From Candidatus Scatovivens sp. (lineage in GTDB: Bacteria > Bacillota > Clostridia > TANB77 > CAG-508): a DNA stretch of 64,000 nt. Position 1 is the stretch's first letter, and every line of letters begins with the position of its first letter. Below are positions 1,980-45,600 of the stretch, piece by piece. Where the stretch lies: NCBI GenBank assembly GCA_045646345.1, contig JAZRKN010000009.1, positions 19,599-83,598 of the forward strand, written 5' to 3'. The notes below the pieces were generated by a model. That model was given only the letters and a program-made list of their open reading frames with translations, ran no database searches and was not told the DNA's origin. Position numbers and translations under genes: made by a program.

Positions 1980-2609
1980 TTGGTGAATAGTGCTATAAAA
2001 AGGAGAAAAAAGGTGCAGAAATTTAAAAAGATTTTAAGTATAGTTGTTTTAATCGCGCTATTACCTGTATTAGTAGTTAATTCGGTAATTTTGATTAATT
2101 CAATTAGAAATCCAGAAGAAATACCATCATTTTGTGGATGGAAGCCATTTATTGTATTATCTGGATCAATGGAAACAGAAATATTTCCAGGGGATTTGGT
2201 AATTGTAAAAGAAGTGGATGCAGATACATTAAAAAAAGATGATATTGTTGCATTTCAAGAAGACAATATAGTAATAACTCATAGAATTGTTGATATTGTT
2301 GAAGTTAATGGCGAAAAGAGATACATAACTAAAGGTGATAATAACAACACAAAAGATAATGGTTTTGTAGTAGAAAAACAAATAGAAGGTTTATATCAGT
2401 TTAAAATATCTGGACTTGGAAACTTAGCAGTATTTATACAAACACCAATTGGAATGGTAGTTTCTTTATCGATTCCAATATTATTGCTTATATTAGTTCA
2501 AAGAGCTGAAAATCAAAAAATACAAAAGGAAAAAGACAAAAAAGAACAAAATTTAGAAAAAGAAATTGAAAAACTAAAGAGAGAAAAAGAAGAACTAATG
2601 AAAAAATAA
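1980..2609 (+). CDS. sipW: Signal peptidase I, SipW type (archaeal/ER-type SPase, S26B)
   Basis: N-terminal TM, SGSMETEIFPGDLVIV catalytic-Ser region, ITHRIV His box and KGDNN motif; the real start is probably GTG at 2013 (AGGAG at 2001); lysine-rich C-terminal tail. Confidence 0.8.
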   Translation: MVNSAIKRRKKVQKFKKILSIVVLIALLPVLVVNSVILINSIRNPEEIPSFCGWKPFIVLSGSMETEIFPGDLVIVKEVDADTLKKDDIVAFQEDNIVITHRIVDIVEVNGEKRYITKGDNNNTKDNGFVVEKQIEGLYQFKISGLGNLAVFIQTPIGMVVSLSIPILLLILVQRAENQKIQKEKDKKEQNLEKEIEKLKREKEELMKK

Positions 2610-2680
2610 AGTTAATAATGACTATAATGTCTTTATTATAAATTTACATTAAAAGATAAAAGAAAGGGGGAAATAAACAT

Positions 2681-3283
2681 ATGAAAAACGAAAGCAGAAT
2701 TGTTAAATTTACAGCATTTGTATTATTATTAACAATGATCGTATTATGTTTAGTTTCAGGAACATTTGCAAAATATACTTCTCATTTTGCAGGTACAGAT
2801 ACAGCTATAGTTGCTGTTTGGGATGTTAGTGATGGTGATATCGAAGAAAAATTTGATATTTTTGATCATTCAAAAATCTATGATTTGGAGAATGCAAATT
2901 TTGATGCTCCAGTAGCTGACGCTGATGTATATCAAGATGCTAGTGAAGAAGCAAAAATTGCACCAGGTACATGGGGAAGCTTTACATATGAATTAACAAA
3001 TGGTTCAGATGTTACAACTTTATACAAGATTGCGTATACTGCAGATGAAGCTGGAATTCCATTAGAATGGTCATTAAATGGATCTGATTGGGAAAATGAT
3101 GTTGCAGCATTAGATGTAGATGAAACTGTATTTACAGAATCAGAAGAATTAATTACATTATACTGGAGATGGGTATTTGAAGGTGGAAATCTATCAACAG
3201 ATGAAGCTGATACAGCTTTAGGTAAAGCTGGTGTAGCTGCTCCATCAATTAAAATTGATGTAACATTCACACAAAAAGATTAA
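2681..3283 (+). CDS. TasA/CalY-like secreted protein with SipW-cognate signal peptide
   Basis: Signal peptide ending ...LVSGTFAKYTSHFAGTD resembles the TasA/CalY GGGTFAYFSD cognate motif; immediately downstream of sipW; strong RBS AAAGGGGGAAA. Confidence 0.6.
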   Translation: MKNESRIVKFTAFVLLLTMIVLCLVSGTFAKYTSHFAGTDTAIVAVWDVSDGDIEEKFDIFDHSKIYDLENANFDAPVADADVYQDASEEAKIAPGTWGSFTYELTNGSDVTTLYKIAYTADEAGIPLEWSLNGSDWENDVAALDVDETVFTESEELITLYWRWVFEGGNLSTDEADTALGKAGVAAPSIKIDVTFTQKD

Positions 3284-3300
3284 TAAAAAACAAGATAGAT

Positions 3301-3337
3301 AAAAGCTCTATGACGTAATGAAAATAGGGCTTTTATT
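3301..3337 (+). terminator. Rho-independent terminator after the tasA-like gene
   Basis: aaagctctat / atagggcttt stem (one G-U pair) followed by TTTATTT. Confidence 0.5.
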
Positions 3338-3395
3338 TAAATATATTGACAAAAGGTTTTAACTTTTTGTGAGTATATTTAAGGAAAGAGTAAAT

Positions 3396-4112
3396 ATGGA
3401 AGAAAAAAATAATAAGAAACCAGAGAAAAAAATTAATATTGAAGAATTAGAAAAAGAAGTAGATGTTGATGAAGAGTTAGATGACGATGAAGAATACTAT
3501 GATATTGACGATTATGAAAGAAAAATTAGAAAAGATAGAAGAGATAAAATTGTTTTAATTATAATAATTATAATTTTATTACTTTTACATTTGTTATGTC
3601 ATAAATTAGGAAAAATAGGTTACAAAAAAGAAGTATCAACAAATGCTGGAGATTTAACAGATGTTGTAAGATTTGATGTAATAGAAATTTTAGATGGAGA
3701 TGTAAAAAAGATAAAGGATACGCAATTAAATATATTCAATAATAAAGATTTTAATGGAGAAAAAATAATTGCTCCAAGATCAAGTGGTGAATATAGATTT
3801 TGTGTTGAAAACTTAGTAAAAGGAGATTTGACATATAGTATAGAATTTTTAGATGAAATGACAAATCCTATAAATATGAAATATAGGTTGAAAATTGATA
3901 ATATCTATATAAGAGGAAACCAAAAAGAATATGTAGATATAGAAGAATTAAAAGTAGATGATATAGTTGTTTTGGAAAATTCTAACAATATATATACACT
4001 AGAGTGGAAATGGGAAGATGATGATAAAGCTGATACATTTGTAGGATCACGAAAAGAAACACAATCATATACTTTAAAACTAAAGATAAATGCAGATAAT
4101 TCTCAAAAATAA
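3396..4112 (+). CDS. Hypothetical single-pass membrane protein (acidic cytoplasmic N-terminus, beta-rich extracellular domain)
   Basis: ORF track gives 3369..4112; ATG at 3396 has the better RBS (AAGGAAAG); D/E-rich N-terminus, one TM (IVLIIIIIILLLLHLL), C-terminal domain with W-x-W motif. Confidence 0.45.
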   Translation: MEEKNNKKPEKKINIEELEKEVDVDEELDDDEEYYDIDDYERKIRKDRRDKIVLIIIIIILLLLHLLCHKLGKIGYKKEVSTNAGDLTDVVRFDVIEILDGDVKKIKDTQLNIFNNKDFNGEKIIAPRSSGEYRFCVENLVKGDLTYSIEFLDEMTNPINMKYRLKIDNIYIRGNQKEYVDIEELKVDDIVVLENSNNIYTLEWKWEDDDKADTFVGSRKETQSYTLKLKINADNSQK

Positions 4113-4133
4113 AGTTTATTTGAAAGGGTACAA

Positions 4134-4760
4134 ATGAAATTAACAGAAGCAGCTGTTTGGAATAGGAAAAAGAACTCTAATAAAATAAAAAAAAGACTAA
4201 ATATAATGTTTTACGTTATATTAATTCCTTTGCTTGCTTATAATATGGCTTTGATTGTACAAGCTGTAGTAAGGCCAAATGAAACACCAGCTTTTTTAGG
4301 ATATAAGATGTATGTCATAATATCTGGAAGTATGCAACCAGAATTAGAAGTGGGAGATATTGTTGTTGTAAAGAAAATTAATCCAAATGATTTAAAAAAA
4401 GATGATGTGATTTCTTTTAGAAAAGGTCAAACAATAATAACTCATAGAATTGTAGAAGTAAAAAACGCAGAGGAAAAACTACAGTTTTTAACCAAAGGAG
4501 ACAATAACAACACTAATGATAAAGACTTAGTTTCTGACAAAGAAATCGAAGGAATTGTAGTAAATAAAATACAAAAAATAGGAAAAATTGTATTGAAATT
4601 GAGAGATAAAACATTAATTATTGTGATAATTCTTATATATTATATATTCTTAATGTATGATCAATCAGTTCAAAAAAGAAAGAACTTAAGAAGAATAAAA
4701 AGAGAAGAATACGAAGAGAAAAAGAGAAAGGAAAACTTGGATGAAGGAGCGAAAGATTAA
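4134..4760 (+). CDS. sipW: Signal peptidase I, SipW type (second paralog)
   Basis: ISGSMQPELEVGDIVVV, ITHRIVEV and KGDNNN motifs parallel to the first SipW; C-terminal TM plus K/E-rich tail. Confidence 0.8.
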   Translation: MKLTEAAVWNRKKNSNKIKKRLNIMFYVILIPLLAYNMALIVQAVVRPNETPAFLGYKMYVIISGSMQPELEVGDIVVVKKINPNDLKKDDVISFRKGQTIITHRIVEVKNAEEKLQFLTKGDNNNTNDKDLVSDKEIEGIVVNKIQKIGKIVLKLRDKTLIIVIILIYYIFLMYDQSVQKRKNLRRIKREEYEEKKRKENLDEGAKD

Positions 4761-5256
4761 ATTACATAATTTAATTTTTATATATGTTATAACAACTATA
4801 ATTGTAACAGTATTTTCGTTTTCGAAATATGTTACAACAGTTTCTGCTGAGAATAAAGCTACACTTGCAGCTATGGCAACTAATATGTCTGTAAATATAG
4901 CGTTAACTCAAGAAGCATATCCAGGTTTTTCAATGGTTTTTCCAGTAGAGATATCAAATAAAGAAAACGATAAGATTTGTGAAGTTTCACAAGAATATGT
5001 TTTAAGAATAGATAGAGCTGACATGGAAAACTTGCCACTTGAATTTTCATTATATAATGATGAATTTTGCACAAGTGAAATTGAAGAAATACAAAAAGAT
5101 ACTTTTTTATCTGAAAGTTTTAAATTTACTGCAGGTGTTGAAGATACACAAACATATTATTTAAAAGTTTATTGGCCAGAGAATGAAAAAAATGAATTAT
5201 TAGCATTTGAAATTGGCTATTTTTCAGTAGAAATAATTGCGACACAAGTAGATTAA
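4741..5256 (+). CDS. Small secreted protein with SipW-cognate-like signal peptide
   Basis: MKERKIK...TVFSFSKYVTTVSAEN, i.e. a basic N-region, hydrophobic core and FSKY(V/T) motif; overlaps the sipW2 end by 20 nt (translational coupling). Confidence 0.5.
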   Translation: MKERKIKLHNLIFIYVITTIIVTVFSFSKYVTTVSAENKATLAAMATNMSVNIALTQEAYPGFSMVFPVEISNKENDKICEVSQEYVLRIDRADMENLPLEFSLYNDEFCTSEIEEIQKDTFLSESFKFTAGVEDTQTYYLKVYWPENEKNELLAFEIGYFSVEIIATQVD

Positions 5257-5275
5257 AATTTGGAAAGGACGTAAA

Positions 5276-6043
5276 ATGAAAACTAAAAAAATTAAATCTA
5301 GATTTAATTTTAATAAGTTACTTTTATTAATTATTCCAATTATATTTTTAACAGGTTCTGTTGCTAAATATATTAAAGAAAAAAATGCAGAACTTGTATA
5401 TGAGGCTAAAAGTTTCTATTTTGAAAGTGATTTGCTTTCTAATAATACTAAGGCATTAGCTTATACATATGATGTTGGAAATGATGAAATAACAATTAAT
5501 TTAAATAATAATATTGATGACTTAAGATATTCAGATGTTGATATTAAATATACTGTATCTATAAAAGATGCTCAAGGTAATCAAGTAAAAGATAAAAACG
5601 GAGATATATTAGAAGATATAACAGGTAAATTATCAAATAACAGTATAGATTCAAAAAAAATAACATTTGAAAATTTACCAGCGGGAAAATATATTGTTGT
5701 AGCAAAGGCAACAGAACCGTATGAGAAAACCTTGCAAGCATCATTTGTATTAAAATCAAGAAATGATGCGGTGGAGTACAATGTAAGTGATTCAGCTAAT
5801 AGTCCAGTATTACAACTAACAGTAAAAACGACAGATTATAAAGGTGATGTAAAAATAACATGGCCAGCTAACATTGTGCCAGATAATACAGATTCTAAAT
5901 TTGCAAATGTAAATTCTGGTTATAGTGGTGGAAATATAATAATTCCTTTTGAAGCTAATTCAGAATATACATTTCAATTTTTTAAAAAACAACCTAGTAT
6001 GAGTTATGGTAAAACAAGCTTTGTGGTAGAAAGGAGCGAATAA
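5276..6043 (+). CDS. Secreted protein with SipW-cognate-like signal peptide
   Basis: MKTKKIKSRF...FLTGSVAKYIKEK matches the G(T/S)xAKY pattern also seen in the 2681 gene; its stop abuts the giant gene start. Confidence 0.5.
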   Translation: MKTKKIKSRFNFNKLLLLIIPIIFLTGSVAKYIKEKNAELVYEAKSFYFESDLLSNNTKALAYTYDVGNDEITINLNNNIDDLRYSDVDIKYTVSIKDAQGNQVKDKNGDILEDITGKLSNNSIDSKKITFENLPAGKYIVVAKATEPYEKTLQASFVLKSRNDAVEYNVSDSANSPVLQLTVKTTDYKGDVKITWPANIVPDNTDSKFANVNSGYSGGNIIIPFEANSEYTFQFFKKQPSMSYGKTSFVVERSE

Positions 6044-6045
6044 TA

Positions 6046-9000
6046 ATGAGAAATAATTCAAAAAATAATATAAAATTATTACTTATACTTATTATTGTTT
6101 TAGCTTTCATACCATATAAGCTTATTTTTTCGAAAGCGGAAGAAACTAATAATGAAGTAGAAAAAAATACAATTATTGAATCTAATATAGAAACGACAAA
6201 TTTGAATTTAGGTCAAGAAGAGAATATTGTATCAAATGAAGTACAAATTTCAAATGATAGAGAAACAGAAAATATTGTAAGTGAAAAATCAAATACAGAA
6301 ACAAATACAACTGTAGAAAATGTGGTTACAGAAAAAAACAACGAAAATCAGGTTGTCGAAAATGAAGTAAATGAGAATACTATAAATCAAAATACTATAA
6401 ATCAAAATACAGTAGAGAATATTGTTTCAAAAGATGAATATGAAAATAAAGTTGCAACAAATGAAATATCAAATACAGTTGCTACATCAAATGAGAACGT
6501 TGCTATCGGAAATTTTGTTGTTAGTCAAGAAATGCAAGAATTATTAGGTGCTATGGCAGAACCAGTTGATGAACCGGAAGTACAAGAGATTTCTGAAATT
6601 GGGTTAAAAGCAACTCTTTGGGATTCTGAACAATATAGTGCAGGAACTGGAACAGAATTAACAGAAGTTGGAGCAACAGTTAATAATTGGCAATTTGAAA
6701 CAAATAAATATTTACAAATTGATCCAAAAGTAGTTGCTGATGGTAATACATACATTATAACGGTTGAACTACCACAAGAATTTTATATAATAGGATCAGA
6801 ATTATCTGTACCAACAGGATATCAAAATGTTAACTTTACAAAAAATGCAGAAATTGTGATAAATGATTCCCAAAAGTATGAATTAAAACCATATAGTGGA
6901 ACAGCTGAATATACATTAAATAATATGGTTGAAAGTGGAACTATACAAATTGGTATAGGATATGATGTTGTTTTGTGGGATAAACAAGAAAATTCTTCAT
7001 TAACTCCGGATGGGGTTAATCCAATAACAGTTAAACTTTCAAAAAAAGAATCTGATGGAACACTAACAGAATTAAATAGAGTACTAATTTCAAAAGCTTT
7101 TTCGGGAAGTAAAAATCAAGATGCGGTTAATGTAAATGGAATGTTAGAAGGGGAATCTTCAGGATTATCAACTATTGTTGCAAATAAAGATGATAGAATT
7201 AAATTTGTAAAATCTATTAATAATAATGATGGTATGGTTAGATATAAATATTATAAATCAGCAAAAATTACTGTAAAATTACCAAGCTATACTGATACTA
7301 ATGGAAAAATACATTATTTATCTTTTGATGAATCAACTTTAGATTTATCAAAAGTTGCACATACTTCCAAAAATGTGGATTTATCGCAAGCTGATGCTGG
7401 TATAGTTACAATTGATTTAGTAAATCCTTACTGGAATTCTGGAACGTTAGTTGGATTTGTTGTAGGCCCGCTTCCAGAAGAATTATTAGAACAAAATATA
7501 AATTCTTTTATATTTAAAAATGGAACTATAACAACTGTTGTTAATGGAAAAAATGGAAATAATAATATAACATATCGTACTTGTTCAATTCCATCAGTAG
7601 AATATCAAAAAGAAAGTTTAGAAAATGTAGTAATATCTTCACAAAATAAAGGTGTTACTATAGTTGAAAGACCAAATGACGCAGTGTCAATTTTGGGAGG
7701 AATATATTTAGAAAACAAAGGTACTGGTGTAAGTTGTCCAAAAAATATTGATTTGAAATTCGACATTAATAATACAAATTTAATAAAAGTTACAACAATA
7801 AATATATTTGCTGACACGATACAAGAATATATAGATGTTACATATACATTGGTTGATGAAAATGGAAATAGAGTATTTTTGGATAATAATGGAAATAGAG
7901 TTTCAGAAGGTTCTAATGAGGCGATTGGAGAATGGGTATATTCACTAAAAAATACATATAAAAATTCAACAAAGAAAGAAAATTTAAAAAATACAATAAC
8001 AAGAGGAAAATTACCTGAAGCACATAGACAATATTATTTTAAATCTGTAAATTATAATTTAGAATCAATAAATGAACAAACTAGATTATATGCACCATCT
8101 TCAGTTTTAACTCTTACAGCTGCTGGTAATTTTTTAGGATATGTTGATGATTCAAGTGGAAATAATGAAAAAACAGCAGCTTCAAAAATGGTTGTTACAT
8201 CATTAGATGCAGGTATTACTAATCTAGAAAGAACTGTAACTACAACACTTCAAAATACAAGTACGCCAACATATATAATTGATAATGCAACTATAAATAA
8301 AACAAAAATACAAGCTGGAGAATCATTTAATATTTCTGGAAAAGTAGTTACTCCTTCTTATCCATATGGAAATAGTACATGGTTAAAAAGAATAACTTTA
8401 GCTGTTAAACTTCCAAAAGATATTACAATAAATGAACAAGCAATTGTATTGAAAAATGCGAAAGGACTATTAATAAGTGGTTCTACTGTTACAACTCAAG
8501 ATATAGGTAATGGAAATATTTTATGGAAAATAAAATTACCAGAAGATATATGTATAGGAAGAGCTTCTGAAGATATAGGTACGTTACCTTCTGGAGATAC
8601 AATATCATTTGATTTACAATTAGATACTTCATATACAATGAATGCAGTAACAATATTTGTTAAAGATTTAGTAACTGTAGGTGCTTATAAACAATTGAAT
8701 AATGCAAGCGGATCATATTCGTGGGCTTCTAAAGCGGATATATATGATATAAACGAAAATGGATCTACAACAGATAATATAGGTGGTATAAAATCAAGTA
8801 ACGCTAGTGCATGTCAAATTATTTCTCAAACAGCTACGTTGGAAATTCAAGATTCTATAAGTGTTGAATCAAATGGAATTGTTTCAGAGGAATCAAATGT
8901 CGGTAAGATTTTTTCAGTAGAAGATACTATCAATTATAATTTAGATATAGGATGTTTTAGTGGTGGTAGAGCAGAAGGGTTTGTTTATTACATACCAATT

Positions 9001-11151
9001 CCTAAAAAAACAACAATTACAGATAATTTCTTAATTGAAAATAGTAAGAATGGTAAATTCGAACTTGAATTAACAGAAGAACCGATATATACAGGAACTA
9101 ACATATTTGATTTAAGTTATGTTATGCAAGATGGAATTACATATGCTTCAGCTCCAAGTGTAACTAATTGGTACACAGCAGAACAAATAAATAATGATGA
9201 TTCTTTAAATTTTGAAGATGTTACAATGATAAAATTAACAGTTAAAGATGCTGCTATAAAAAATGGTGATAAAGTAAGAATTACATTAAAATTGAAATAT
9301 GTAGGTGAAAGTTTTAGAGAAGAAGCTGGTAAAGAAAATATCTGGCATAGTGGTGGATATTATAGATTTATAAACAGTGACAGAGAAAGTGCAGGAAATT
9401 TTGCAACAGAAGGTGTTTCTATAAAATTAAATTGTGAAGATATTGAACTTGATGAAATAACATTAACTGCAGCAAGAGGTATGGTTCCAACTGGTGTGGG
9501 AAATGTTAATGTAGTAAATATATCAGAAACAGAATTCCCAATTTTTGAAAATGCTCACACATTTGAAATAACAGATGTAGAAACTTACAATGTAATTTTA
9601 AAATCAAAAGATTATATGCTTGCTAATCCAGATATGCCGGGTATAGATGCAAATCAAAATTTTGCTATAACGGTAAATATGGGAACAAAAGAAGTAAATA
9701 TATTAGAAAGTGCAAAAGAAAATCCTATTGAAATAGGAACTATTTCAGCAAATTCGTCACCAAGCTTCACTTACCAAATATATAATGCAGATGCTTTAAA
9801 TGATAATTCGCAAATAAGATATATAATTGTAACGTTACAAAGTGAAAATGGAATAACATTAAAACAAAAAATTAATATAAATAGAGAGGTTGTTCAAGCT
9901 TCAGATCCACAAATTGCTATAGTAGCAGGAAAAAGATATGTGACATTTGATGATTTAACGACAGATACAGTAATAAGTCAAGATTCATCATTTACAGCAC
10001 AATTTATATTAGAATATATACCAAATACATATAAAGATGAGAGAATTACTTTTTCAAATGCTTTACCTGTCGGAACAAAAATAATATTAGAAAATTTTAC
10101 TGATGAGGCAAATCCAACATATTGGTATTATTCAGTGAATTCTGCTATTTCTACAATTAAATTAGAAGATTTTGTTGCAATGGGAAGAACTGGAAGTGAT
10201 AATTACAATATGCCAAACGATTTGGATATTATAAAAGAAAAACTTTTAGTATTAGTTGATTTCTCTCAATGTTCAAATTGTCTTTCATCAGAAACATATT
10301 CAATAAAATTACAATTAACAGGAACAACTACAGATGTTGAAGATTTTGATTCAAATGAATTGAAATTTTCGCTAAGAAATAAAAATACTTTTGTGTTAAA
10401 TGAAATTTCAAATGCAAAAATGGGAGAAAAATTTAATATAAATTATACAATGAACTTGACCCAAGGTGCAGACACTAAATATGGAGGAAGAAAAGCTTCT
10501 TTGGTAATAACTGCTCCGGATAATATTCCATCAGATACTATGCTAACAATTCAAAATAATGTGTATAATTTGAATGCTGAAAAGCAATTTATAGTATCGC
10601 TTGGAGATATAAAAACACAAACAAGTTCATTAGAAATGAATATCTTTTCTAATATGCAACCAGATGTGGAAACGATATATGAATTTGATATAGCATTATG
10701 GATTTCAGCAACTGCTAATGCTGATGCTCCAAAATTAGGAGAATTAATTTCTGCTAAAAAAATAAATATAACAACTAATAATGAGTTGAATCCTGCTCTT
10801 AAAGTAACAAATATAAGTTCAAGAATTATTAAAAAAGATGAACTAAATCAATTATATACACTTGATTATAAGTACAAGCCGGATGCTAATTGCAAAGTAA
10901 CTGTAGAATTACAACAAAAAATTGGTAGTGCTTATAAGAAAGTAACTGATAAATTAAATCAAGTAAATGGATCAACGGCTCATACAATGGGAACATTTGA
11001 TATAAATCCTGATTCAGGAAATAATATATTAGAATTTAGATTGTCATCAATAACAGAAAAAGCAACATATAGAATTGTGTTTAAAGTTTGTGACGATGCA
11101 GGAACAACAATATTAGAAGTTCCATATAATTTTATAGTGTTAGACAAATAA
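6046..11151 (+). CDS. Giant secreted protein (1701 aa), putative fibre/adhesin
   Basis: N-terminal signal/anchor (LLLILIIVLAFIPYKLIFSKAEE), then an N/E/T-rich low-complexity stretch with NTINQNTINQ repeats, then about 1500 aa of beta-rich domains; no LPXTG, SLH or choline-binding C-terminus. Confidence 0.6.
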   Translation: MRNNSKNNIKLLLILIIVLAFIPYKLIFSKAEETNNEVEKNTIIESNIETTNLNLGQEENIVSNEVQISNDRETENIVSEKSNTETNTTVENVVTEKNNENQVVENEVNENTINQNTINQNTVENIVSKDEYENKVATNEISNTVATSNENVAIGNFVVSQEMQELLGAMAEPVDEPEVQEISEIGLKATLWDSEQYSAGTGTELTEVGATVNNWQFETNKYLQIDPKVVADGNTYIITVELPQEFYIIGSELSVPTGYQNVNFTKNAEIVINDSQKYELKPYSGTAEYTLNNMVESGTIQIGIGYDVVLWDKQENSSLTPDGVNPITVKLSKKESDGTLTELNRVLISKAFSGSKNQDAVNVNGMLEGESSGLSTIVANKDDRIKFVKSINNNDGMVRYKYYKSAKITVKLPSYTDTNGKIHYLSFDESTLDLSKVAHTSKNVDLSQADAGIVTIDLVNPYWNSGTLVGFVVGPLPEELLEQNINSFIFKNGTITTVVNGKNGNNNITYRTCSIPSVEYQKESLENVVISSQNKGVTIVERPNDAVSILGGIYLENKGTGVSCPKNIDLKFDINNTNLIKVTTINIFADTIQEYIDVTYTLVDENGNRVFLDNNGNRVSEGSNEAIGEWVYSLKNTYKNSTKKENLKNTITRGKLPEAHRQYYFKSVNYNLESINEQTRLYAPSSVLTLTAAGNFLGYVDDSSGNNEKTAASKMVVTSLDAGITNLERTVTTTLQNTSTPTYIIDNATINKTKIQAGESFNISGKVVTPSYPYGNSTWLKRITLAVKLPKDITINEQAIVLKNAKGLLISGSTVTTQDIGNGNILWKIKLPEDICIGRASEDIGTLPSGDTISFDLQLDTSYTMNAVTIFVKDLVTVGAYKQLNNASGSYSWASKADIYDINENGSTTDNIGGIKSSNASACQIISQTATLEIQDSISVESNGIVSEESNVGKIFSVEDTINYNLDIGCFSGGRAEGFVYYIPIPKKTTITDNFLIENSKNGKFELELTEEPIYTGTNIFDLSYVMQDGITYASAPSVTNWYTAEQINNDDSLNFEDVTMIKLTVKDAAIKNGDKVRITLKLKYVGESFREEAGKENIWHSGGYYRFINSDRESAGNFATEGVSIKLNCEDIELDEITLTAARGMVPTGVGNVNVVNISETEFPIFENAHTFEITDVETYNVILKSKDYMLANPDMPGIDANQNFAITVNMGTKEVNILESAKENPIEIGTISANSSPSFTYQIYNADALNDNSQIRYIIVTLQSENGITLKQKININREVVQASDPQIAIVAGKRYVTFDDLTTDTVISQDSSFTAQFILEYIPNTYKDERITFSNALPVGTKIILENFTDEANPTYWYYSVNSAISTIKLEDFVAMGRTGSDNYNMPNDLDIIKEKLLVLVDFSQCSNCLSSETYSIKLQLTGTTTDVEDFDSNELKFSLRNKNTFVLNEISNAKMGEKFNINYTMNLTQGADTKYGGRKASLVITAPDNIPSDTMLTIQNNVYNLNAEKQFIVSLGDIKTQTSSLEMNIFSNMQPDVETIYEFDIALWISATANADAPKLGELISAKKINITTNNELNPALKVTNISSRIIKKDELNQLYTLDYKYKPDANCKVTVELQQKIGSAYKKVTDKLNQVNGSTAHTMGTFDINPDSGNNILEFRLSSITEKATYRIVFKVCDDAGTTILEVPYNFIVLDK

Positions 11152-11154
11152 ATA

Positions 11155-11190
11155 AAAAAGAAGAAGTTGTTTTAACTTCTTCTTTTTTTA
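11155..11190. terminator. Bidirectional rho-independent terminator
   Basis: aaaaagaagaagttg / aacttcttcttttttt hairpin between convergent genes. Confidence 0.75.
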
Positions 11191-11191
11191 T

Positions 11192-12121
11192 TTAAATTTT
11201 ATTATTTGTTCTTCTTTTTGGAAGTGGCTTTGAAGAGATTACTGTTGGCGAAACTTCAAAAACAATATTAAAACAATCAAATTTATACATTTCATTATTA
11301 TCTAAATAATCTAAGTAAATATCAAGTTCATCAATATTTCTACAAGCCGCTATAATTGCTGGATGTAGGTTGTAATTGAAAAATAATTCAACTCCTAATT
11401 CTAGTCCGTCTTTTGTTGATAGATTTTCTTTGTTCTTTATCAATTTAAAGGCTTCTTTAAATCTAGATATTGAAGCATTTTTGAAGAACGATAATGGAAT
11501 TGTATAATGTGTTTGAATAATTTCTTCATATGATGAAAATTTATTTTTATTAGCAGAAAAGATTTGCTCTAATTCATGATATGTATATGGTAAAAAAACA
11601 GTTTGTTTTGTTTCTGAAATTACTAGAGTGTTTTCTCTTTTTAAGTCTTCTGGTAAATTATTTTTTAATTCTTCGAAATTGACAATAGGATCAGCTTCAG
11701 TTAATTCTAATTTTATATTTATGTTTTGGTCTGAAAATTGATTTAATGCTTTTTCAATTTGTAGAGTATTTAATTGAACAGTACTATAAGCTTCCGAAAA
11801 AGTAGAATTAAAGTTGTTAATTTTTTCTTCAGTTAGTGAATTCATGTTATTCTCTTTTATTGCATTTGTTAGAATTGTAAGCAATAGGTTTAATTTATTT
11901 AAAATTGCAATATTAGAATTAGAAACTTCAAGAGTTTCTTTTAGAAAATTTACTATTTCTGGGGTTGAATTATTTTTTTGAAATTTATCAAGATATTTTG
12001 AAATAGTTTCTTTTTTTATGTTTTGTACATCTAACATTGATGATAAAATCTTTTTTTCATAATCCAAAAGCATATTAAATTTTTCATGATTTTTAATTAA
12101 TTCTTCTGTAAAAAATATCAT
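11192..12121 (-). CDS. Hypothetical cytoplasmic protein (309 aa)
   Basis: Long minus-strand ORF convergent with the giant gene and sharing its terminator; no recognisable motif. Confidence 0.5.
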   Translation of the reverse strand: MIFFTEELIKNHEKFNMLLDYEKKILSSMLDVQNIKKETISKYLDKFQKNNSTPEIVNFLKETLEVSNSNIAILNKLNLLLTILTNAIKENNMNSLTEEKINNFNSTFSEAYSTVQLNTLQIEKALNQFSDQNINIKLELTEADPIVNFEELKNNLPEDLKRENTLVISETKQTVFLPYTYHELEQIFSANKNKFSSYEEIIQTHYTIPLSFFKNASISRFKEAFKLIKNKENLSTKDGLELGVELFFNYNLHPAIIAACRNIDELDIYLDYLDNNEMYKFDCFNIVFEVSPTVISSKPLPKRRTNNKI

Positions 12122-12334
12122 ATATTTACACCTCGAATATATTATATATTAAAAAATTTTAAAAATCAGTATTTTAATATAAATTTAATATAAGAGATAT
12201 TTTGATAAATAAAAGGAGTTTAACTTTCGTGAAAAAATAATTTAAAAAAGTATAAATGATACATAAAAGTTATTGTAAAAAAAATATATTATTTGTAAAA
12301 TATTGTTATAAACAAAAGATAATGGGAGGTTTCT

Positions 12335-15300
12335 ATGACTAGAAAAAAAGTAGGAAAATTTTTATTATATATAATAATTGCTATGCTTATTATTTCTTCA
12401 TGTTACTGTTTTTGGTCTTATTTTTCCAAAGGTAAACAAAAAATAACAGTAAAAACAAGTAACAATTGTTATAGTGGTGAAAGTATTAATGCTACTATTG
12501 CTGTAATGAATGTTAAAACTAATAAAGCGATAGATGCAAAAATCACAGCAACATTATATGATAGTGATGACAAGAAAGTAAAAGATGTTGTTACTAAAAT
12601 GGAAATTGAAAAAGGAGAAGCTGGAGAATTAGCTTTAAATGTACCGGAAGACTTAAAAAGTGGAAAGTATACTTTAAAGATAAAATCTAATTCGGGATTT
12701 TATTCCGATACAGCAGAAATTCCAATTAATGTTAAAAATGATAAAAAGTCAAATGTGATAATTTCTTTTGATAAAGGGATTTATAAACCTGGAGATGAAA
12801 TTAATTATAGAATTTTAATGCTTTCTAAAAGAGATGAAACTCCTTTGAGTCAGAATATTAAAGTTTCAATATATGATGGAAATGATAATAGAGTTTATAT
12901 AGAAGAAGCTGTGACTTCTGAATATGGTATTATTTCAGGAAAGTTTAAATTAGCAGATGAGGTTAATAGTGGTACTTATAAATTAAAAGTTGAATCTGAT
13001 AGACAGGAAGTTACAAAAACTTTTAATGTAAATCCATATATAATTCCAACCTTTGAAGTTGAAGTTTCATCAGATAAAGATAATTATATTGTTGGAGATG
13101 TGGCTAAAATAAAGGTAGATGCTAAATACTTTTTTGGAGAGCCTGTAAAAAAAGCTGAAATAAAAGGAACTGTTGACGGAAAAGAAGTTGTTGGATTGAC
13201 AGATGAAAACGGAAGTTTTACATACGAATATAAATTTGGAAAAGCTTCTAAAATAGTTGCAGATTTTACTGTGGTAGATTCATCTAATTATTTGATAGAG
13301 GCGTCAAAAATATTATGTTGTGGAACAGCATTATATGAAGTTGAAGTTATTCCAGAATATTCAGATATAGCTTATGGATTTGATAATGATATATATGTAA
13401 TTACTAAAAAAATAGATGGAACTCCAGTTAAAACTTATTCAACATTAAAAATAGGAAAAATTTCAAAACAAGTAATTTCTGATGAAAATGGAATCGGAAA
13501 AGTTACAATAACATCTAGCGAAACAGAAGAATTACCAAAAAAAGAAATGCTATCTGTTAAAGTTGAATCTGAAGATATGGAGTCAAACAAAGTAACAAAA
13601 ACACATCAATTATTAATTCATGATGCATTTCCTAATTTAATAAAAACGAACAAAACAAAATACAATGCTGGAGAAGATATTGAAATAAAATTAAATTCAA
13701 AAGTGAATACAAATACCAAAAATATATATGTCTTCAAAAGTAATGAACTTATTAAAACTATTGTTACAGATGATGATAATGTGAAAATTAATTTAGGCGA
13801 TGTCTCAGGGTTAGTTGATTTATATATTCCAAATCAAAAAAATATGTCAACAATATATAATTATTATGATGATTTTTATGAAACTTATAAAGTTAATATA
13901 GATTATTCTAAAAAGACAATTTTTATAAAACCAGAGAAAGAACTAAATATTTTAGTAGAACCGGTAAAAGATGAATATAAACCAGGAGATACTTTAGATG
14001 TTAAGTTCACTACAACTAATGAACAAAATGAGTTGGTAAATTCTGCTTTATTAGTGAGTATTTTAGATGAAGCGATACTTGCGTTAGCTGATAATGATTT
14101 GTCTATTGATAATATAAAATTAGCGTTAGAAGATATTGTTTTAGAACCAGGTATGACTGCTGCAGATTTATATGTAATGGCACTAGACGAATCTTCAGAT
14201 CTTGCTTTTAATTCTGTATTATTAAAACAAAAAGTAACAAATCCAGATATTTATACTAAAAATTATAGAAATTACGAAACAGAAATATATTTGATGTTTG
14301 GAATTATAGCTATTATAGTAGCTGCAATTTTAATAGCTTTAAGTTATATTGCTAAGAATAAAGAAAAAGTAGCTAAAGTGATAATTCCGGTAATAGATGT
14401 TTTGGCAATATTTATTTTAATGTATATATATGCTGAGGAAGTATTCGGTTTAATAGATAATTTATTTATGGTATTTGCAACATTTATTCTTTCAATAATT
14501 GCGTATTTGTTGTTCTTGTATAAAGAACGTGACTTTATATTTAAATTAGTATCAGAAATGATTGTAATTCCAATTGTCTCAATAATAGGAATATTCTTGA
14601 TTTCTATATTAGTATCTTTGGTATTTGATATATATATACCAAAAATATTTGCTTTAGTTTTAGGTGTAGTCGTTTTATTAATATTATTAGAGTTTGCTAT
14701 ATTAAAATCATTACAAAGAAAAAGAGGATTAAATAAAGTTTTAACAAAGATTTTTGAGTTTTCAAAACTAATTTCAAGAGCTGTTGTATTTTGGTTTTTA
14801 ACAATAGTATTAACAGAAATTACAGAATTTGGATTACTAATAGTTCTTGCTCTTTATTATTTATATAGAAAATTTATATTAAAAGAAGCAAAAACTAAAG
14901 TAGAAGATGGGAAAATAGTATTAAATTTAAATGTTTCTGAATTAGTGGGAATGCTAATAGGAATGTTATTAATTATAATTGTTATAGTAATAGTAATTTC
15001 TTCTAATTTAAATGATTATAGAGTAATGAATGATTCTGTAACTTCAGATGTTACGGCTCCTAGTTTACCTATGAAGGATTCGACAACAAATTCAAGTACT
15101 GTAACATTAGATTTTAGTCAAGTTACAGAGGATATGATAATCTCAGGAGCGTCTGATGCTACAGGAGCGGGAAGTAGCATAAATAATTCATTCGGTTCAA
15201 TGTTTGATTTTGATTTGAATATTATGCAAGATTCAAAAGCCGAATCATCTGTTGAGATGTCTACAGAAGATTTTGTTTCAGAAGGTGATAATTCAAATGA

Positions 15301-17392
15301 AATAGAAAATGAAATAGAAGAAAATGTTAGAAATGTATTTTTAGAAAGCTTAGCATTTATTCCAGAATTAGTTACAGAAAATGGTGTAGCAAATTTTAAA
15401 ACAGAGATTAGTGATAATATAACAACTTGGAATATTCAAACAATAGGAAATACAAAAGAAGGAAATGTAGGATTTGGTTCAGGAAGTTTTAAAGTATTTA
15501 AAGAATTTTTTGTAGAATATACTCTTCCGGCAAATTCGGTTGTTACAGATAAAGTAAGTATTCCAGTAACACTACATAATTATACAGAAAAAAATCTAAT
15601 AATTGATTTATTAGTAAAAGAAAATGATTGGGCGATTATTGGTGATTATGAAAAACAAAATGTAGTTGAAGCTAAATCAACAAAAATGATATATGTACCA
15701 ATTGAAATTTTAAAAGATGGAAACAATACATTAAGAATAGAAGCGAATTCAGGAAAAAAATCAGATATAGTTGAAAAAACGTTAGTTGTTAAACCTAATG
15801 GTTTAGAAAAAAATGTAGTAGTTTCAAGCGGAATGATTGAAAATAAATATTCTCAAGATATCATATTTAATGAAAAAGCGATTGAAAAAACTGAAAAAAT
15901 AAAAGTAAAATTATATGCATCGCCAGTTGTTCAAGCGATAGAAAATATAGATGCTATGTTAAGAATGCCAACAGGATGTTTTGAACAAACTTCTTCTTCG
16001 TTATATCCAGATATTTTAGTTTTGAAATATTTAAGAGAACATGATTTAAGTAATAAAGAATTAGAAGAAAAAGCGTTAAATTATATATCTAAGGGATATC
16101 AAAAGTTATTAACTTATGAAGTAAAAACTAAAAAAGGTGGATATTCATTGTATGGATATGCACCAGCAGAACCTGTAATAACAGCCTTTGGGTTAATGGA
16201 ATTTAATGAACTTTCAGAAGTTTATGAAGTTGAAGAAAAAGTTATTGATAATATGGTTGAGTATTTATTTGATGTTCAAAATGTAAATGGAAGTTTTGAT
16301 TATAATACTGTTTATATTGGTGGAACTGCTAGTAGAGATGATTTAGCAATGAATGCATATATTATTTGGGCTTTATCAGAGGTTGTTCCAAATGATAAGA
16401 GATTAGAAAAATCAATAAGTTATTTAGAAAATAAATTAGATAAAATTAAAGATAACTATACATTAGCATTAATTGCAAATATTTTTGCTAATACTGATAA
16501 TAAGAATTCAGCAAATGAAGTTTTAAAAATGATAAATCAAAATATTAAAGTAACAGAAAATGGTGCTTATATTGCTTCAAATATTTCGGATTATTATGGA
16601 ACAAGAGGTAATCATCAAAATAACCAAGCGACAGCACTAACATCAATGGCTTTGACTAAACTAAATTCAAATCAAAAAAATAATGAAGAATTTGTAAAAT
16701 TCTTAGTAAGTCAAAAAGATAAATATGGAAGTTGGGGAACAACACAAGCAACAGTACTTGCATTAAAAGCAATTAATAGCTTTACTCAAAATTCTGATAT
16801 TAAAGATCAAACAATAACTATAAAATTAAATGATAAAGAAGAAAAAATAGAAATAAAAGAAAATGCTTTAGATGTTTATGAAGTAGAGTTTGATAATGTA
16901 TCAAAAGAAAATAGATTATTAATTGATATGAAAAAAGGTAAAATAACATATGAAGTAATTAAAAATTATTATCAAAGTTATGCAGAAATAGATGATGATT
17001 TACAAAATGAGAATAAATTAAGTGTAGTACAGAACTTAAGTAGTGTAGCAAAAGTAAACGATATAATTACTCAAAACATATCAATAAAAAATAATAAAAC
17101 ATATATTGAAAATGGATTGATAGAAATTAATATACCACAAGGAACTACTCCGGTAGAAGCTTCATTAATGAATTTGAAATATAATGGAATAATTGAAAAA
17201 TATGAATATAATTATAATAAAATTAATCTTTATATAAGGGGATTTGAACCTGGAGAAGAAGTATTATTGGATATTCAATATAGAGCATTATATCCAGAAA
17301 ATATTACTGGTGGAGCAATAAGATTTTTTGATTATTATAATCCAGAAATTGAAGAAATTTGTTACCCAAAAGTTCTTATAGTAGAAGAATAA
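12335..17392 (+). CDS. Alpha-2-macroglobulin family thioester protein with an embedded polytopic membrane domain
   Basis: N-terminal signal anchor; MG-like repeats; about 8 TM helices (roughly nt 14280-15030); Ser/Thr/Asp-rich linker; FLESLAFIPEL...DNITTW (A2M FPETWLW...DSITTW region); MLRMPTGCFEQTSSSLYPDILVLKYL matching the A2M thioester [23 protein letters not shown]; TAFGL motif. Confidence 0.8.
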   Translation: MTRKKVGKFLLYIIIAMLIISSCYCFWSYFSKGKQKITVKTSNNCYSGESINATIAVMNVKTNKAIDAKITATLYDSDDKKVKDVVTKMEIEKGEAGELALNVPEDLKSGKYTLKIKSNSGFYSDTAEIPINVKNDKKSNVIISFDKGIYKPGDEINYRILMLSKRDETPLSQNIKVSIYDGNDNRVYIEEAVTSEYGIISGKFKLADEVNSGTYKLKVESDRQEVTKTFNVNPYIIPTFEVEVSSDKDNYIVGDVAKIKVDAKYFFGEPVKKAEIKGTVDGKEVVGLTDENGSFTYEYKFGKASKIVADFTVVDSSNYLIEASKILCCGTALYEVEVIPEYSDIAYGFDNDIYVITKKIDGTPVKTYSTLKIGKISKQVISDENGIGKVTITSSETEELPKKEMLSVKVESEDMESNKVTKTHQLLIHDAFPNLIKTNKTKYNAGEDIEIKLNSKVNTNTKNIYVFKSNELIKTIVTDDDNVKINLGDVSGLVDLYIPNQKNMSTIYNYYDDFYETYKVNIDYSKKTIFIKPEKELNILVEPVKDEYKPGDTLDVKFTTTNEQNELVNSALLVSILDEAILALADNDLSIDNIKLALEDIVLEPGMTAADLYVMALDESSDLAFNSVLLKQKVTNPDIYTKNYRNYETEIYLMFGIIAIIVAAILIALSYIAKNKEKVAKVIIPVIDVLAIFILMYIYAEEVFGLIDNLFMVFATFILSIIAYLLFLYKERDFIFKLVSEMIVIPIVSIIGIFLISILVSLVFDIYIPKIFALVLGVVVLLILLEFAILKSLQRKRGLNKVLTKIFEFSKLISRAVVFWFLTIVLTEITEFGLLIVLALYYLYRKFILKEAKTKVEDGKIVLNLNVSELVGMLIGMLLIIIVIVIVISSNLNDYRVMNDSVTSDVTAPSLPMKDSTTNSSTVTLDFSQVTEDMIISGASDATGAGSSINNSFGSMFDFDLNIMQDSKAESSVEMSTEDFVSEGDNSNEIENEIEENVRNVFLESLAFIPELVTENGVANFKTEISDNITTWNIQTIGNTKEGNVGFGSGSFKVFKEFFVEYTLPANSVVTDKVSIPVTLHNYTEKNLIIDLLVKENDWAIIGDYEKQNVVEAKSTKMIYVPIEILKDGNNTLRIEANSGKKSDIVEKTLVVKPNGLEKNVVVSSGMIENKYSQDIIFNEKAIEKTEKIKVKLYASPVVQAIENIDAMLRMPTGCFEQTSSSLYPDILVLKYLREHDLSNKELEEKALNYISKGYQKLLTYEVKTKKGGYSLYGYAPAEPVITAFGLMEFNELSEVYEVEEKVIDNMVEYLFDVQNVNGSFDYNTVYIGGTASRDDLAMNAYIIWALSEVVPNDKRLEKSISYLENKLDKIKDNYTLALIANIFANTDNKNSANEVLKMINQNIKVTENGAYIASNISDYYGTRGNHQNNQATALTSMALTKLNSNQKNNEEFVKFLVSQKDKYGSWGTTQATVLALKAINSFTQNSDIKDQTITIKLNDKEEKIEIKENALDVYEVEFDNVSKENRLLIDMKKGKITYEVIKNYYQSYAEIDDDLQNENKLSVVQNLSSVAKVNDIITQNISIKNNKTYIENGLIEINIPQGTTPVEASLMNLKYNGIIEKYEYNYNKINLYIRGFEPGEEVLLDIQYRALYPENITGGAIRFFDYYNPEIEEICYPKVLIVEE

Positions 17393-42636: not shown

Positions 42637-45600
42637 ATGAAAAAATTAGTTAGTTTAACATATCCGCAAAAATCAATACTACTTACAGAGAAGTTTTACA
42701 AAAATGCTTCTATGAATAATATTTGTGGGACAGCAATTATCGATTCTGTTCTTGATTTTGATGCGTTAAAACAAGCAATAAAAGTTGTAATAAAGGAAAA
42801 TGATGTATTCCATATTCACTTATCTCAAAAGAAAAATGAAGTAAAACAATTTATATCATATAATGAAATTACTGATATAGAAATAATAGATATAAAAGAT
42901 GAATCAGAAGTATACTTAATAGAAGATGCATTGATGGCAAAACAATTTAATTTATATGAATCTGATTTATTTGAGTTTAAAATTTTTAGATTTGAAAATG
43001 GTGCTGGAGGTTTTTTATTAAACATTCATCACATTATTTCTGATGGTTGGACATTAGGTTTAACTTGTAGAAAAATTATGAAAGCATATTCAAATATTAA
43101 AAATAATGAAAACGGAGAAGAAGAGACTTTTTCGTATATTGATTATGCAAAAAATGAAGAAGAATATTTTAATAGTTTAAAATTTCAAAAAGATAAAGAA
43201 TACTGGAATGAATTATTTTCAGAAAATATAAATCCAGCAATTTTACCTTCAGATAGTTCTGAGAAAAATACAGAATTTTCATGTTTAGGAGAAAGAATGA
43301 CTTTCTCTATTCCAAAAGCCAAAATGAAAATAATTAATGAATATTGTAGTAAAAATAAATTGACTGTATTCAATTTTCTTATGGCAATTTATTCAGTTTA
43401 TATTTCAAAAATTATTGGTTCAGATGATTTTAGTATTGGAACACCAATATTAAATAGAACAAATTTTAAAGAGAAAAATATAATTGGTATGTTTGTAAAT
43501 GTTGTTCCTTTTAAAGTAAAGGTAGAACAATCTGCAGACTTTATTAGTTTTGCAAGTAATCTTTCAAAAGATACTGTTTCATTATTAAGACATCAAAAAT
43601 ATCCATATCAAATGTTATTAGAAGATTTGAGAAAAAAAGACTCTTCAATTCCAAATCTTTATAACGTTGTTTTGTCATATCAATTAACAAAAGCTAACAA
43701 TGAAACTGAATACAAATATTCAACTAGATGGGCATTCAATAAGAATGTAACTGACGATATGACTATTCAATTTTTGGATTTAGATGAACAAGGAATATTA
43801 ACTGTTTGTTATGATTTTAAAAAATTAAAATATTCAAATGAATATGTGAAAAATATGCATTCTAGAATTTTAGAAATGATTAATAAAGTCTTAGAAACAG
43901 AAAATATATGTGTAAAAGATATAGAAATCATTACTAAAAATGAAAGAGAAAAACTTTTAGTTGATTTTAATAATACTGAAGTTAAATATGATAAAAATAA
44001 GAATGTAATAAAAACATTTAAAGAAATGGTAAAAAAATACCCAGAGAAAATTGCTATAAGCTTTGAAAATAGACAAATGACTTATAAAGAATTGAATCAA
44101 AAATCAAATATTTTAGCTAATAGTTTAATTAAAGAAGGAGCAAAAGCAAAAGATATAATTGCTATTTGTGTAAATCGTTCTTTGGAATTAGCTATTGGTC
44201 TTTTAGCAATATTAAAAGTTGGAGCAGCATATTTACCAATAGATCCAGAATATCCAGAAGATAGAATTGAGTATATGTTAACAGATAGTAATGCTAAAAT
44301 GATACTTTCAAATAAGAGAACTCAAAGTGCAATAAATGAAAAAATAAAAATAAAAAGAATTGATATTGGATTAGAATCTACTGTTTACAATAGAGAAAAT
44401 ATAGAAATTGAAGAAAAAATATTACCAGAAGATTTGATTTATTTGATATATACTTCAGGTTCTACTGGAAAACCAAAGGGTGTTATGTTAAAACACAAAA
44501 ATATAATTAATTTCTTACTTGGAACAAAGGAAGTTATTGATTTTAATCCAGAAAAAATAATGGTATCAATAACTACAATATGTTTTGATATATTCGTTTT
44601 AGAATTTTGGGGTGCATTAACTTCTGGTATGACATTGGTTTTAGCAAATGAAGTAGAACAAAATAATGCTGTGGCGTTAAATAAACTTTGTTTAGAAAAT
44701 AAAGTAACTATGATTCAAACCACTCCTTCTAGATTTAAAGCATTACTTGAAAATAAATCTGCAACTGAGTTTGTCAAAAAAATGACAGATATTATGGTTG
44801 GAGGAGAAGGACTACCAAAAGGTTTGATTGACAAGTTTGAAGGTTTAACTAATGCTAATATTTTTAATATGTACGGTCCAACTGAAACGGCAGTATGGTC
44901 TACTATTAAAAAGGTTAGAAGCAAAGATAAAATTACAATAGGAAAACCGATTGCAAATACTAAATGCTATATTTTGGATAAAGATCAAAATATACTTCCA
45001 ATATATGTTCCAGGGGAATTATATATCGGTGGGGATGGAGTTTCTAGAGGATATTTAAATAGAGATGAATTAACAAATGAGAAATTCATTAAATCTCCAT
45101 TTGAAAAAAATGAGATTATTTATAATACAAATGATTTGGCTTATTATACAAATAGTGGAGAAATAGTTCATTTAGGAAGAACTGATTTTCAAGTTAAAAT
45201 TAGAGGTTATAGAATTGAGCTTGAAGAAATTGAAAACGAAGTAAATAAGATACCTGGAATTTTAAATAATGTGGTAGTGGCAGATGAAAATCAAAAATAT
45301 TTGATTTGTTATTATATATCTAATGAAATTCAAGATACCAATAAAATAACTGCTAGTCTACTAAAAGAACTTCCTAATTATATGATACCAGCGGTATTTT
45401 TCAAGATTGATGAATTTCCACTTACTCCAAATGGAAAATTGGATAGAAAAAAATTACCGAAAGTAAAATTAGAAACAACAAATCTTAATGTAGGACAAAC
45501 AAAGACAGAGAAAATCTTAACTAAAATTATTGCTGAAATTTTAGAAGTAGAAAAAGTAGATATAGATACACCTTTTATGGTATTAGGATTAGATTCTTTG

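Follow-up and report, generated by a model that had tools for sequence, protein, structure and literature searches.

The stretch of DNA studied here (the window) comprises 64,000 nucleotides (nt) of contig JAZRKN010000009.1 of the clostridial bacterium Candidatus Scatovivens sp., and its positions 1980-11151, with a G+C content of about 27%, are filled by seven co-directional open reading frames (ORFs) on the + strand. In order, they encode a SipW-type signal peptidase (sipW-a, also sipW1; 1980-2609), a candidate major fibre subunit (p200; 2681-3283), a putatively membrane-anchored paralogue of this subunit (p247; 3396-4112, in an ORF open from 3369), a second SipW-type peptidase (sipW-b, also sipW2; 4134-4760), a small, divergent member of the p200 superfamily (p171; 4741-5256), a protein with two predicted immunoglobulin (Ig)-like domains (p255; 5276-6043) and a giant secreted protein of 1701 amino acids (aa; 6046-11151), which ends in a conserved module of ~430 aa (9865-11148). 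The seven ORFs lie where the original prediction, a reading of the sequence alone, had placed them, between two terminator-like hairpins. The upstream hairpin (1856-1887, +), a 13-bp stem plus a T run, closes an 83-aa ORF and marks the 5' boundary of the cassette, and a bidirectional one (11154-11188, +) marks its 3' boundary. A promoter-like site with a TG extension (1949-1977) follows the first hairpin; its match of 9/12 is weak evidence, and the promoter scan was uninformative (82 sites vs 83 expected). The genes are closely packed, with gaps of 21 nt before sipW-b, 19 nt before p255 and 2 nt before the giant gene, and sipW-b and p171 overlap by 20 nt. The true start of sipW-a is probably the GTG at 2013 (198 aa), because an AAAGGAG Shine-Dalgarno sequence lies upstream of it and a 198-aa protein is called both in the identical locus L010 and in L006 (related loci are given as L numbers); p247 starts at ATG 3396 (238 aa), as called in L010. 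Pfam and NCBIfam scans of the seven proteins and the two flanking ORFs matched the peptidases alone. The flanking genes are housekeeping genes (MtaB-like radical SAM, GAPDH, PGK, PolC, class A PBP), and the locus therefore belongs to the chromosomal core, with no obvious mobile element.

Both peptidases scored far above the cut-off (51.85 bits) of TIGR02228, the archaeal/endoplasmic reticulum-type signal peptidase I (SPase I), with 95.9 bits for sipW-a and 101.5 bits for sipW-b, and both keep the SGSM, THR and KGDNN boxes of the Ser/His (not Ser/Lys) type, as predicted for two paralogous SipW-type enzymes. The same boxes aligned in 12 of the 13 peptidases of related loci. Scores against NF046067, the Bacillus SipW equivalog, were 107.1 and 100.2 bits, under its cut-off of 190, and the match to the bacterial-type TIGR02227 fell below that model's cut-off; by these profiles, both enzymes are SipW-like but not SipW orthologues. 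They share 35% identity, and each has two hydrophobic segments, one N-terminal and one C-terminal. Wherever a related locus has enough flanking DNA, one peptidase gene precedes p200 and a second one follows the p247-type gene. In distant loci, the position-1 enzymes (the sipW-a type) are 33-38% identical to each other, vs 24-31% to their own position-2 neighbours (the sipW-b type), and they share a C-terminal helix motif ('..aELekLr..'; in sipW-a a cytoplasmic helix '..EKEIEKLKRE..'), suggesting that the pair goes back to an old duplication which has been maintained. One related locus (L002) has three SipW-like genes, the first of which (7587-8309) has lost the catalytic histidine (LGR replacing THR) and may encode a pseudo-peptidase.

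The three small proteins p200, p171 and p255 each possess one N-terminal hydrophobic segment ending in [AS]-K-Y. The N-terminal motifs quoted for the cargo in the original prediction are thus present, and [AS]-[KR]-[YF] is kept by all orthologues in other loci but one (the p255 orthologue of L004, with A-S-Y). In p200 this membrane/signal segment ends SGTFA/KYTS (the slash marks the predicted cut), and the mature protein would be acidic (isoelectric point (pI) 4.05, 21% Asp+Glu) with an aromatic residue (Tyr) at position 2. An exhaustive search with the p200 profile hidden Markov model (HMM) recovered 7,770 cluster representatives at E <= 1e-3, of which 690 reached E <= 1e-30, which overturned our reading of a rare family, based on 54 unnamed proteins from a word-indexed search. 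The motif [GS]T[FYW]AKY[TV] stands at about residue 29 in 136 of the 148 top representatives, and nearly all of the 148 end in T-x-T-Q-V-D (p200 itself in TQKD, vs the family consensus TQVD). None of the representatives checked in the cluster look-up was named, and an NCBIfam scan of 10 distant ones returned nothing meaningful. In some homologues (P0189, P0198, P0204, P0209) the p200 domain with its AKY motif forms the N-terminal part of a protein of 536-645 aa. The C-terminal part of P0204 is a GDSL/SGNH lipase, the sole fusion partner with a Pfam match, and P0189 has an SGNH-like region; the other fusion C-termini were judged by eye to be enzyme-like or beta-helix-like. The lipase fusion (639-2576 of L013) sits in a cassette with two SipW genes.

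The predicted structure of p200 is a beta-sandwich (predicted local distance difference test (pLDDT) 75 for the monomer). Residues 21-50 of p200 belong to the best conserved part of the family (majority fraction 0.68-0.72), yet they have the lowest pLDDT (40-69), which is expected of a strand that folds only in the groove of a neighbouring subunit; the model suggests residues ~31-50 as a candidate donor strand. Foldseek returned two matches at E <= 1e-3, both with weak scores, namely the pilin FimG (8e-4) and the TasA fibre 8aur (9.5e-4), followed by FimA, FimI, PapA and CS20. The p200 gene has the strongest Shine-Dalgarno sequence, and directly 3' of its stop codon lie two adjacent strong RNA stem-loops (3298-3381, +; -32.6 kcal/mol, z = -7.25) without an Rfam match. 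A strong hairpin follows the p200 gene also in L006 (~10643-10725), L007, L009 and L004 (z = -5 to -8 over the loci); it is thus kept in position across five loci, with unrelated sequences. The stem-loops may act as a partial terminator or stabilise the mRNA and so raise p200 above the other products; we infer that a structured element behind the first structural gene would allow the major subunit to be made in excess, which fits p200 as that subunit. No riboswitch or other known RNA was found by Rfam within the window, and thus no link to a cyclic di-GMP riboswitch.

When the p200-family HMM was run against all ORFs of the window, it found, beyond p200, only p247 (E 5e-13) and p171 (E 1.2e-10), and therefore p200, p247 and p171 form one superfamily. 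p247 is 27% identical to p200 over 191 aa. It was described before as an acidic single-pass membrane protein, and it does have an acidic N-terminal stretch (~50 residues, 44% Asp+Glu) that is predicted to be cytoplasmic and a single hydrophobic segment (57-83); it is more than that, a paralogue of p200 with the p200-like domain predicted to be extracellular and LGKIGY in place of the AKY cleavage motif. Proteins of the p247 type are membrane-tethered in every locus examined, in one of them via an extra C-terminal membrane segment. Judged by its sequence, p247 is a candidate for an uncleaved, membrane-anchored paralogue that acts as fibre base, anchor or terminator. p171, with the motif FSFS/KYVTT, two conserved Cys residues and the C-terminus ATQVD, is a candidate minor or adaptor subunit. 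The three small cargo proteins had been taken for equivalent fibre subunits, which they are not: p171 is a divergent relative of p200 and p255 has a different fold.

The membrane/signal segment of p255 ends GSVA/KYIKE (predicted cut), and an invariant FYFESDLL segment just past the AKY motif characterises its family; a cluster look-up gave no name for p255 itself. Its model (pLDDT 86) shows two Ig-like domains; the best structural matches are the chaperones of chaperone-usher systems, and it also resembles TapA. We considered p255 as a hidden p200 relative and rejected this, since hhalign aligned the signal segment/AKY region alone. From the model, p255 might serve the giant protein as an adaptor or as a partner of chaperone type.

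The giant protein begins with one hydrophobic segment and an ordinary A-x-A-type signal peptide (IFSKA/EE; in its relatives FTEA/DT, SFA/EG, VFA/AE and AQA/AS), followed by ~140 aa of an Asn/Glu-rich acidic linker at the mature N-terminus. As predicted, it lacks a recognisable wall anchor (no LPxTG, no C-terminal membrane segment). The original prediction held that it would be refuted if the giant carried an ordinary signal peptide and belonged to a well-characterised adhesin family unrelated to the neighbours; the signal peptide is indeed ordinary and shows no SipW-class motif, but no significant Pfam domain was found in the giant, and it belongs to no characterised adhesin family. The N-terminal ~1270 aa have no counterpart in distant loci, where the giants are unrelated over most of their length (GLUG beta-helix repeats in L004, DUF285/BspA-type leucine-rich repeats (LRR) in L008, weak Chlam_PMP and Flg_new matches in L012). 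Residues 1274-1698, in contrast, match the C-termini of the giants of L009 (E 7e-31) and L004, and a profile of this C-terminal module built without them recovered the independent L012 giant at E 2e-72 and that of L004 at E 5e-15; the module is thus common to otherwise unrelated giants. p255 and the C-terminal module occur together in every locus that has one of them (the window, L001, L004, L006, L007, L009 and L012), and both are absent from L008. The module may be where the rest of the apparatus docks, and the giant is a candidate terminal adhesin.

The original prediction saw in this locus an expanded, much larger version of the sipW operons of Bacillus. Instead, the arrangement of seven genes with two peptidases is itself conserved, occurring across gut and environmental Clostridia and in one metagenome-assembled genome (MAG) of the Desulfotomaculaceae. 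The synteny search suggested at the time as a check recovered this order of genes, with both peptidases, from seven further divergent loci, and because these are independent, the locus is not a product of chance. The order sipW / p200 / p247-like / sipW / p171 / p255 / giant was found in L004, L006, L007, L009 and L012, and with variations in L002, L008 and L013. In L012 a frameshift, or an assembly error of that metagenome contig, divides the p171 orthologue between two overlapping ORFs of 96 aa each (11971-12490). The 4.8-kb contig of L013 ends soon after the start of a p255-like gene and carries no giant. L008 (3874-11277) has a divergent cassette without p255, and its terminal protein (2467 aa; DUF285, BspA-type LRR) lacks the C-terminal module and carries an AKY-type motif (SETDAKYLTS) at its own N-terminus. 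L001, from a Hadza-gut Clostridia MAG, encodes homologues of p171, p255 and the giant (9279-15621). The co-occurrence of p255 with the C-terminal module, the absence of both from L008 and the presence of p171, p255 and the giant by themselves in L001 support, at the level of gene content, a division into two sub-modules (sipW-a/p200/p247 and sipW-b/p171/p255/giant). We found neither a description of this cassette nor an experimental study of the p200 family in the literature.

Known surface fibres offer several points of comparison. No sortase gene lies between 1400 and 12300, and neither LPxTG-like motifs nor C-terminal membrane segments, which could serve as sorting signals, occur in the seven proteins, so that the locus does not encode a sortase-dependent pilus with its LPXTG subunits and pilus sortase. 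The original prediction had found the N-terminal peptides of the cargo similar to the TasA/CalY class and compared the locus with amyloid-like fibres, a term no longer current for TasA, whose fibres form through donor-strand exchange (PMC9674648). p200, p247, p171, p255 and the giant did not match PF12389 (TasA/CalY/camelysin, Peptidase_M73) at E <= 0.1, whereas all 120 listed TasA homologues carry this domain, and none of the window proteins matched TIGR04088 (the SipW-cognate signal peptide) or TIGR04090 (BsaA); in a permissive scan of 38 p200-family members TIGR04090 was matched once (E = 1.8) and TIGR04088 not at all. Since the prediction itself had named missing hits to such models as a ground for giving it up, the label 'TasA-like' has to be dropped at the HMM level. 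The probability reported by hhalign was 0.5% for the p200 family against a single TasA sequence (a query verified against PDB 8aur) and 11.9% for a 197-sequence p200 profile against a 111-sequence TasA profile in a greedy local alignment, with nothing in global mode; at profile level, p200 is not a member of the TasA family. What stands of the proposed class is a common cleavage-region motif, [GSNAT]T[FWYLM][AS]x[FYW], present in 191 of 197 p200-family and 110 of 111 TasA-family sequences, of which p171 and p255 retain just [AS]-K-Y. The greedy alignment places GTFAKY over GTWAAF and the C-terminal TQVD over ATQW.

The B. subtilis tapA-sipW-tasA operon resembles the cassette in having a SipW-type peptidase beside its substrates, an accessory protein (TapA, for which we used the published model; PMC10151520), the G-T-aromatic-A-x-aromatic end of the signal segment, and a mature subunit with a conserved N-terminal strand and a beta-sandwich, which in p200 is a predicted one, the 8aur structure being one of the two weak Foldseek matches to p200 at E <= 1e-3. 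It has one peptidase instead of two, no sequence-profile relationship to the cassette and a different mature N-terminus (A-F-N-D in TasA vs K-Y-T-S in p200), and the membrane-anchored subunit paralogue, the extra two-Ig-domain protein and the terminal protein of 1000-2500 aa are found only here. The sipW-bsaA-bsaB-bsaC locus of C. perfringens (PMC7395162, PMC11580942) combines SipW with a larger secreted protein and a pair of small matrix subunits that are related to each other, and the model proposed for the SipW-dependent BsaA fibre (signal-peptide-tethered monomers, donor-strand exchange, then cleavage by SipW; PMC11580942) is the one we draw on; unlike the cassette, it has a single peptidase, and BsaC is a 70-kDa vWA protein and not a giant with a conserved C-terminal module. 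A comparable layout is found in the AbpX/TasA-superfamily loci (archaeal ABP, threads, Tafi; 10.64898/2026.01.04.697558), in which major and minor subunits, predicted tip proteins, anchors and a TIGR02228-type SPase I were described. Like p200 (pI 4.05, Tyr), subunits of the AbpX type are acidic, with a pI of ~4, and carry an aromatic side chain at position 2 of the mature protein. The published description sets AbpX apart by an acidic residue at mature position 4, where p200 has Ser, and by linked peptidases with ten membrane helices, vs two segments in each enzyme here, and by these features p200 falls outside this subfamily. Whereas bacterial AbpX fibres are anchored by SLH or LPXTG proteins, the anchor candidate of the cassette is a subunit paralogue that spans the membrane, and the locus encodes neither an LPxTG protein nor a DUF5305 protein. 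Finally, the Gram-negative chaperone-usher pili (Fim, Pap, Csu) provide the best structural matches of both p200 (pilins) and p255 (chaperones), and their operon logic is similar: the major subunit comes first with a hairpin behind it, then minor subunits, and last a large two-part adhesin with a variable head and a conserved C-terminal part, as in the giant. The cassette has no outer-membrane usher, no PapD-family chaperone recognisable by sequence, no outer membrane to cross and no sequence similarity to these systems, and its assembly would be coupled to the cleavage of signal peptides instead of depending on chaperone and usher.

Taking these observations together, we favour, with moderate confidence, the interpretation that the cassette encodes a sortase-independent, SipW-processed donor-strand surface fibre of the TasA/BsaA/AbpX mechanistic type, with a membrane anchor and a terminal adhesin. 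The suggestion of an undescribed surface fibre or adhesin apparatus in the original prediction thus remains plausible, and the locus has no curated description. According to this model, Sec would export the subunits, which would be held in the membrane by their long N-terminal hydrophobic segments until the SipW-type peptidase dedicated to them cleaves behind the small residue in (G-T-aromatic-)A/K-Y. The freed N-terminal strand of p200 (~31-50) would then complete the incomplete Ig-like sandwich of a neighbour by donor-strand exchange, so that p200 would polymerise into the shaft as its major subunit. p247, because it lacks the cleavage motif, would be uncleavable, stay in the membrane and form the anchor or the end of the fibre. 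A terminal, adhesive adaptor/tip sub-module would be made up of p171, p255 and the giant; the lineage-variable N-terminal part of the giant might be the adhesive payload and the conserved C-terminal module might dock to p255/p171; sipW-a would serve p200/p247, and sipW-b p171/p255/giant.

Several points weigh against this interpretation. The cargo matches no TasA, BsaA, camelysin or SipW-cognate model, and the hhalign values against TasA are 0.5-12%; sequence searches of PDB chains, with p200 alone, with the p200-family profile HMM and with the profile of the C-terminal module of the giant, found nothing significant (matches to LptD and NetB at E 0.01-0.3 look like chance), and the p200 monomer model reaches only pLDDT 75. 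The giant has an ordinary signal peptide, and hhalign detected no relation of its C-terminal module to p200 or p255. L001 has p171, p255 and the giant with no SipW, p200 or p247 gene within 9 kb upstream or 4 kb downstream. The assembly polarity and the division of labour between the peptidases are guesses.

The fibre might instead be released as a biofilm-matrix scaffold like those of TasA and BsaA, with p200 forming fibres or gels, p247, p171 and p255 serving as TapA-like nucleators or chaperones, and the giant secreted separately in the manner of BsaC. The layout is that of tapA-sipW-tasA and sipW-bsaA-bsaB-bsaC (PMC11580942, PMC9245690), mature p200 is acidic like the gel-forming AbpX, and the giant carries an ordinary signal peptide of its own, with no pilin-like domain detectable in it. 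We nevertheless consider a released scaffold unlikely, because the membrane-tethered p200 paralogue in every locus argues for attachment to the cell, the co-variation of the C-terminal module with p255 argues for physical coupling of the giant, and the fusion of the p200 domain to enzyme-like or beta-helix-like regions (only the GDSL lipase of P0204 in L013 with a Pfam match) suggests a display handle.

More improbable still is an export or maturation complex without any fibre, in which the two SipWs and tethered beta-sandwich accessory or chaperone subunits would process the giant adhesin and hold it at the membrane. SPase I accessory proteins of the DUF5305 type, which have an extracellular beta-sandwich and membrane helices and are encoded beside such peptidases, are known (10.64898/2026.01.04.697558); p247 and the p247-like protein of L009 share this general topology, p255 resembles periplasmic chaperones, and the giant is the only obvious effector. 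However, neither p247 nor its homologues matched DUF5305, the ordinary signal peptide of the giant would need no special peptidase, and the L013 cassette bears a p200-lipase fusion with no giant on its short contig. The p200 family is moreover huge (7,770), its members are small and acidic with both termini strongly conserved, and the hairpin behind the gene is of a kind typically seen with abundant structural subunits.

A third alternative is an appendage or coat structure linked to sporulation, with the cassette expressed in the mother cell or its products present on spores; TasA was originally described as associated with spores, and endospore appendages are known in Firmicutes. Such a structure might be suspected from spoIIID and spoIIE flanking L012, a Spo0A_C-domain gene flanking L006 and the occurrence of the cassette in spore-forming Clostridia and Desulfotomaculaceae, but it is very improbable, as the neighbours vary between loci and are mostly housekeeping genes, none of the proteins is homologous to Ena or to another appendage family, and Sec/SipW secretion with a membrane anchor fits the vegetative cell envelope.

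Part of the cell-attached donor-strand fibre that we favour is already known: SipW-linked donor-strand fibres have been described, as have, in a 2026 preprint, loci with SPase I, minor subunits, tip proteins and anchors (10.64898/2026.01.04.697558). New here are a large, unannotated subunit family that no curated model covers, the p255 family, two peptidases of the two-helix type that are conserved as a pair, an anchor candidate that is itself a subunit paralogue spanning the membrane, and a conserved docking-type module on interchangeable giants. If the cassette builds a fibre, the TasA/BsaA/AbpX principle of signal-peptide tethering, cleavage by a dedicated peptidase and donor-strand exchange would also cover a modular pilus that brings its own membrane anchor and can exchange its giant adhesins, and this would explain concretely why the peptidases are kept as a pair. 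Pushing this further, one could speculate, though it seems to us a rather doubtful extension, that a widespread signal-peptidase-coupled donor-strand pilus represents a third Gram-positive pilus route besides sortase and type IV pili, in which the SipW paralogues would act as assembly catalysts (one for shaft and anchor, one for the tip), p255 would be a PapD/TapA-like protein, p247 an uncleavable anchor and the p200 domain a handle for interchangeable giant adhesins or enzymes (e.g., the GDSL lipase fusions) on gut Clostridia.

Most gut and environmental Clostridia have not been cultured, and to our knowledge little is known of how they attach to mucus, to fibre particles or to each other. 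In this context, the cassette points to candidate colonisation factors in metagenomes, and the combination of a SipW pair with [GS]T[FYW]AKY...TQVD proteins provides an annotation signature for operons now listed as 'hypothetical'. It is also a possible scaffold for protein display.

Downstream of the cassette, a 309-aa protein, cytoplasmic by prediction, is encoded on the - strand (11192-12121) next to the giant gene; it has no signal peptide, membrane segment or family match. It adjoins the giant gene also in the closer loci L006 (73% identity) and L012 (41%), and its counterpart in L007 is the N-terminal half of a 605-aa gene product encoded on the + strand (37% identity). It is an uncertain member of the system, perhaps as a cytoplasmic eighth component, perhaps as a regulator or accessory gene. 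The 83-aa ORF upstream (1579-1830, +), which the terminator-like hairpin follows, has an internal repeat (HDFLFQEVKFPELHDFLFQEV) and is 96% identical in L006, without a family match. Farther away, a single-module non-ribosomal peptide synthetase with a terminal reductase (42637-46941, +; Condensation, AMP-binding, PP-binding and NAD_binding_4 domains) is followed by a 555-aa ORF without a Pfam match. An alpha-2-macroglobulin-like protein of 1685 aa (12335-17392, +) was considered as a further component of the cassette and rejected, its gene adjoining the cassette in L006 but not in L007 or L012. This protein has MG2, bait-region, A2M and TED domains with a CFEQ thioester motif, and, unusually, a long multi-helix hydrophobic stretch in its middle (~aa 640-870).

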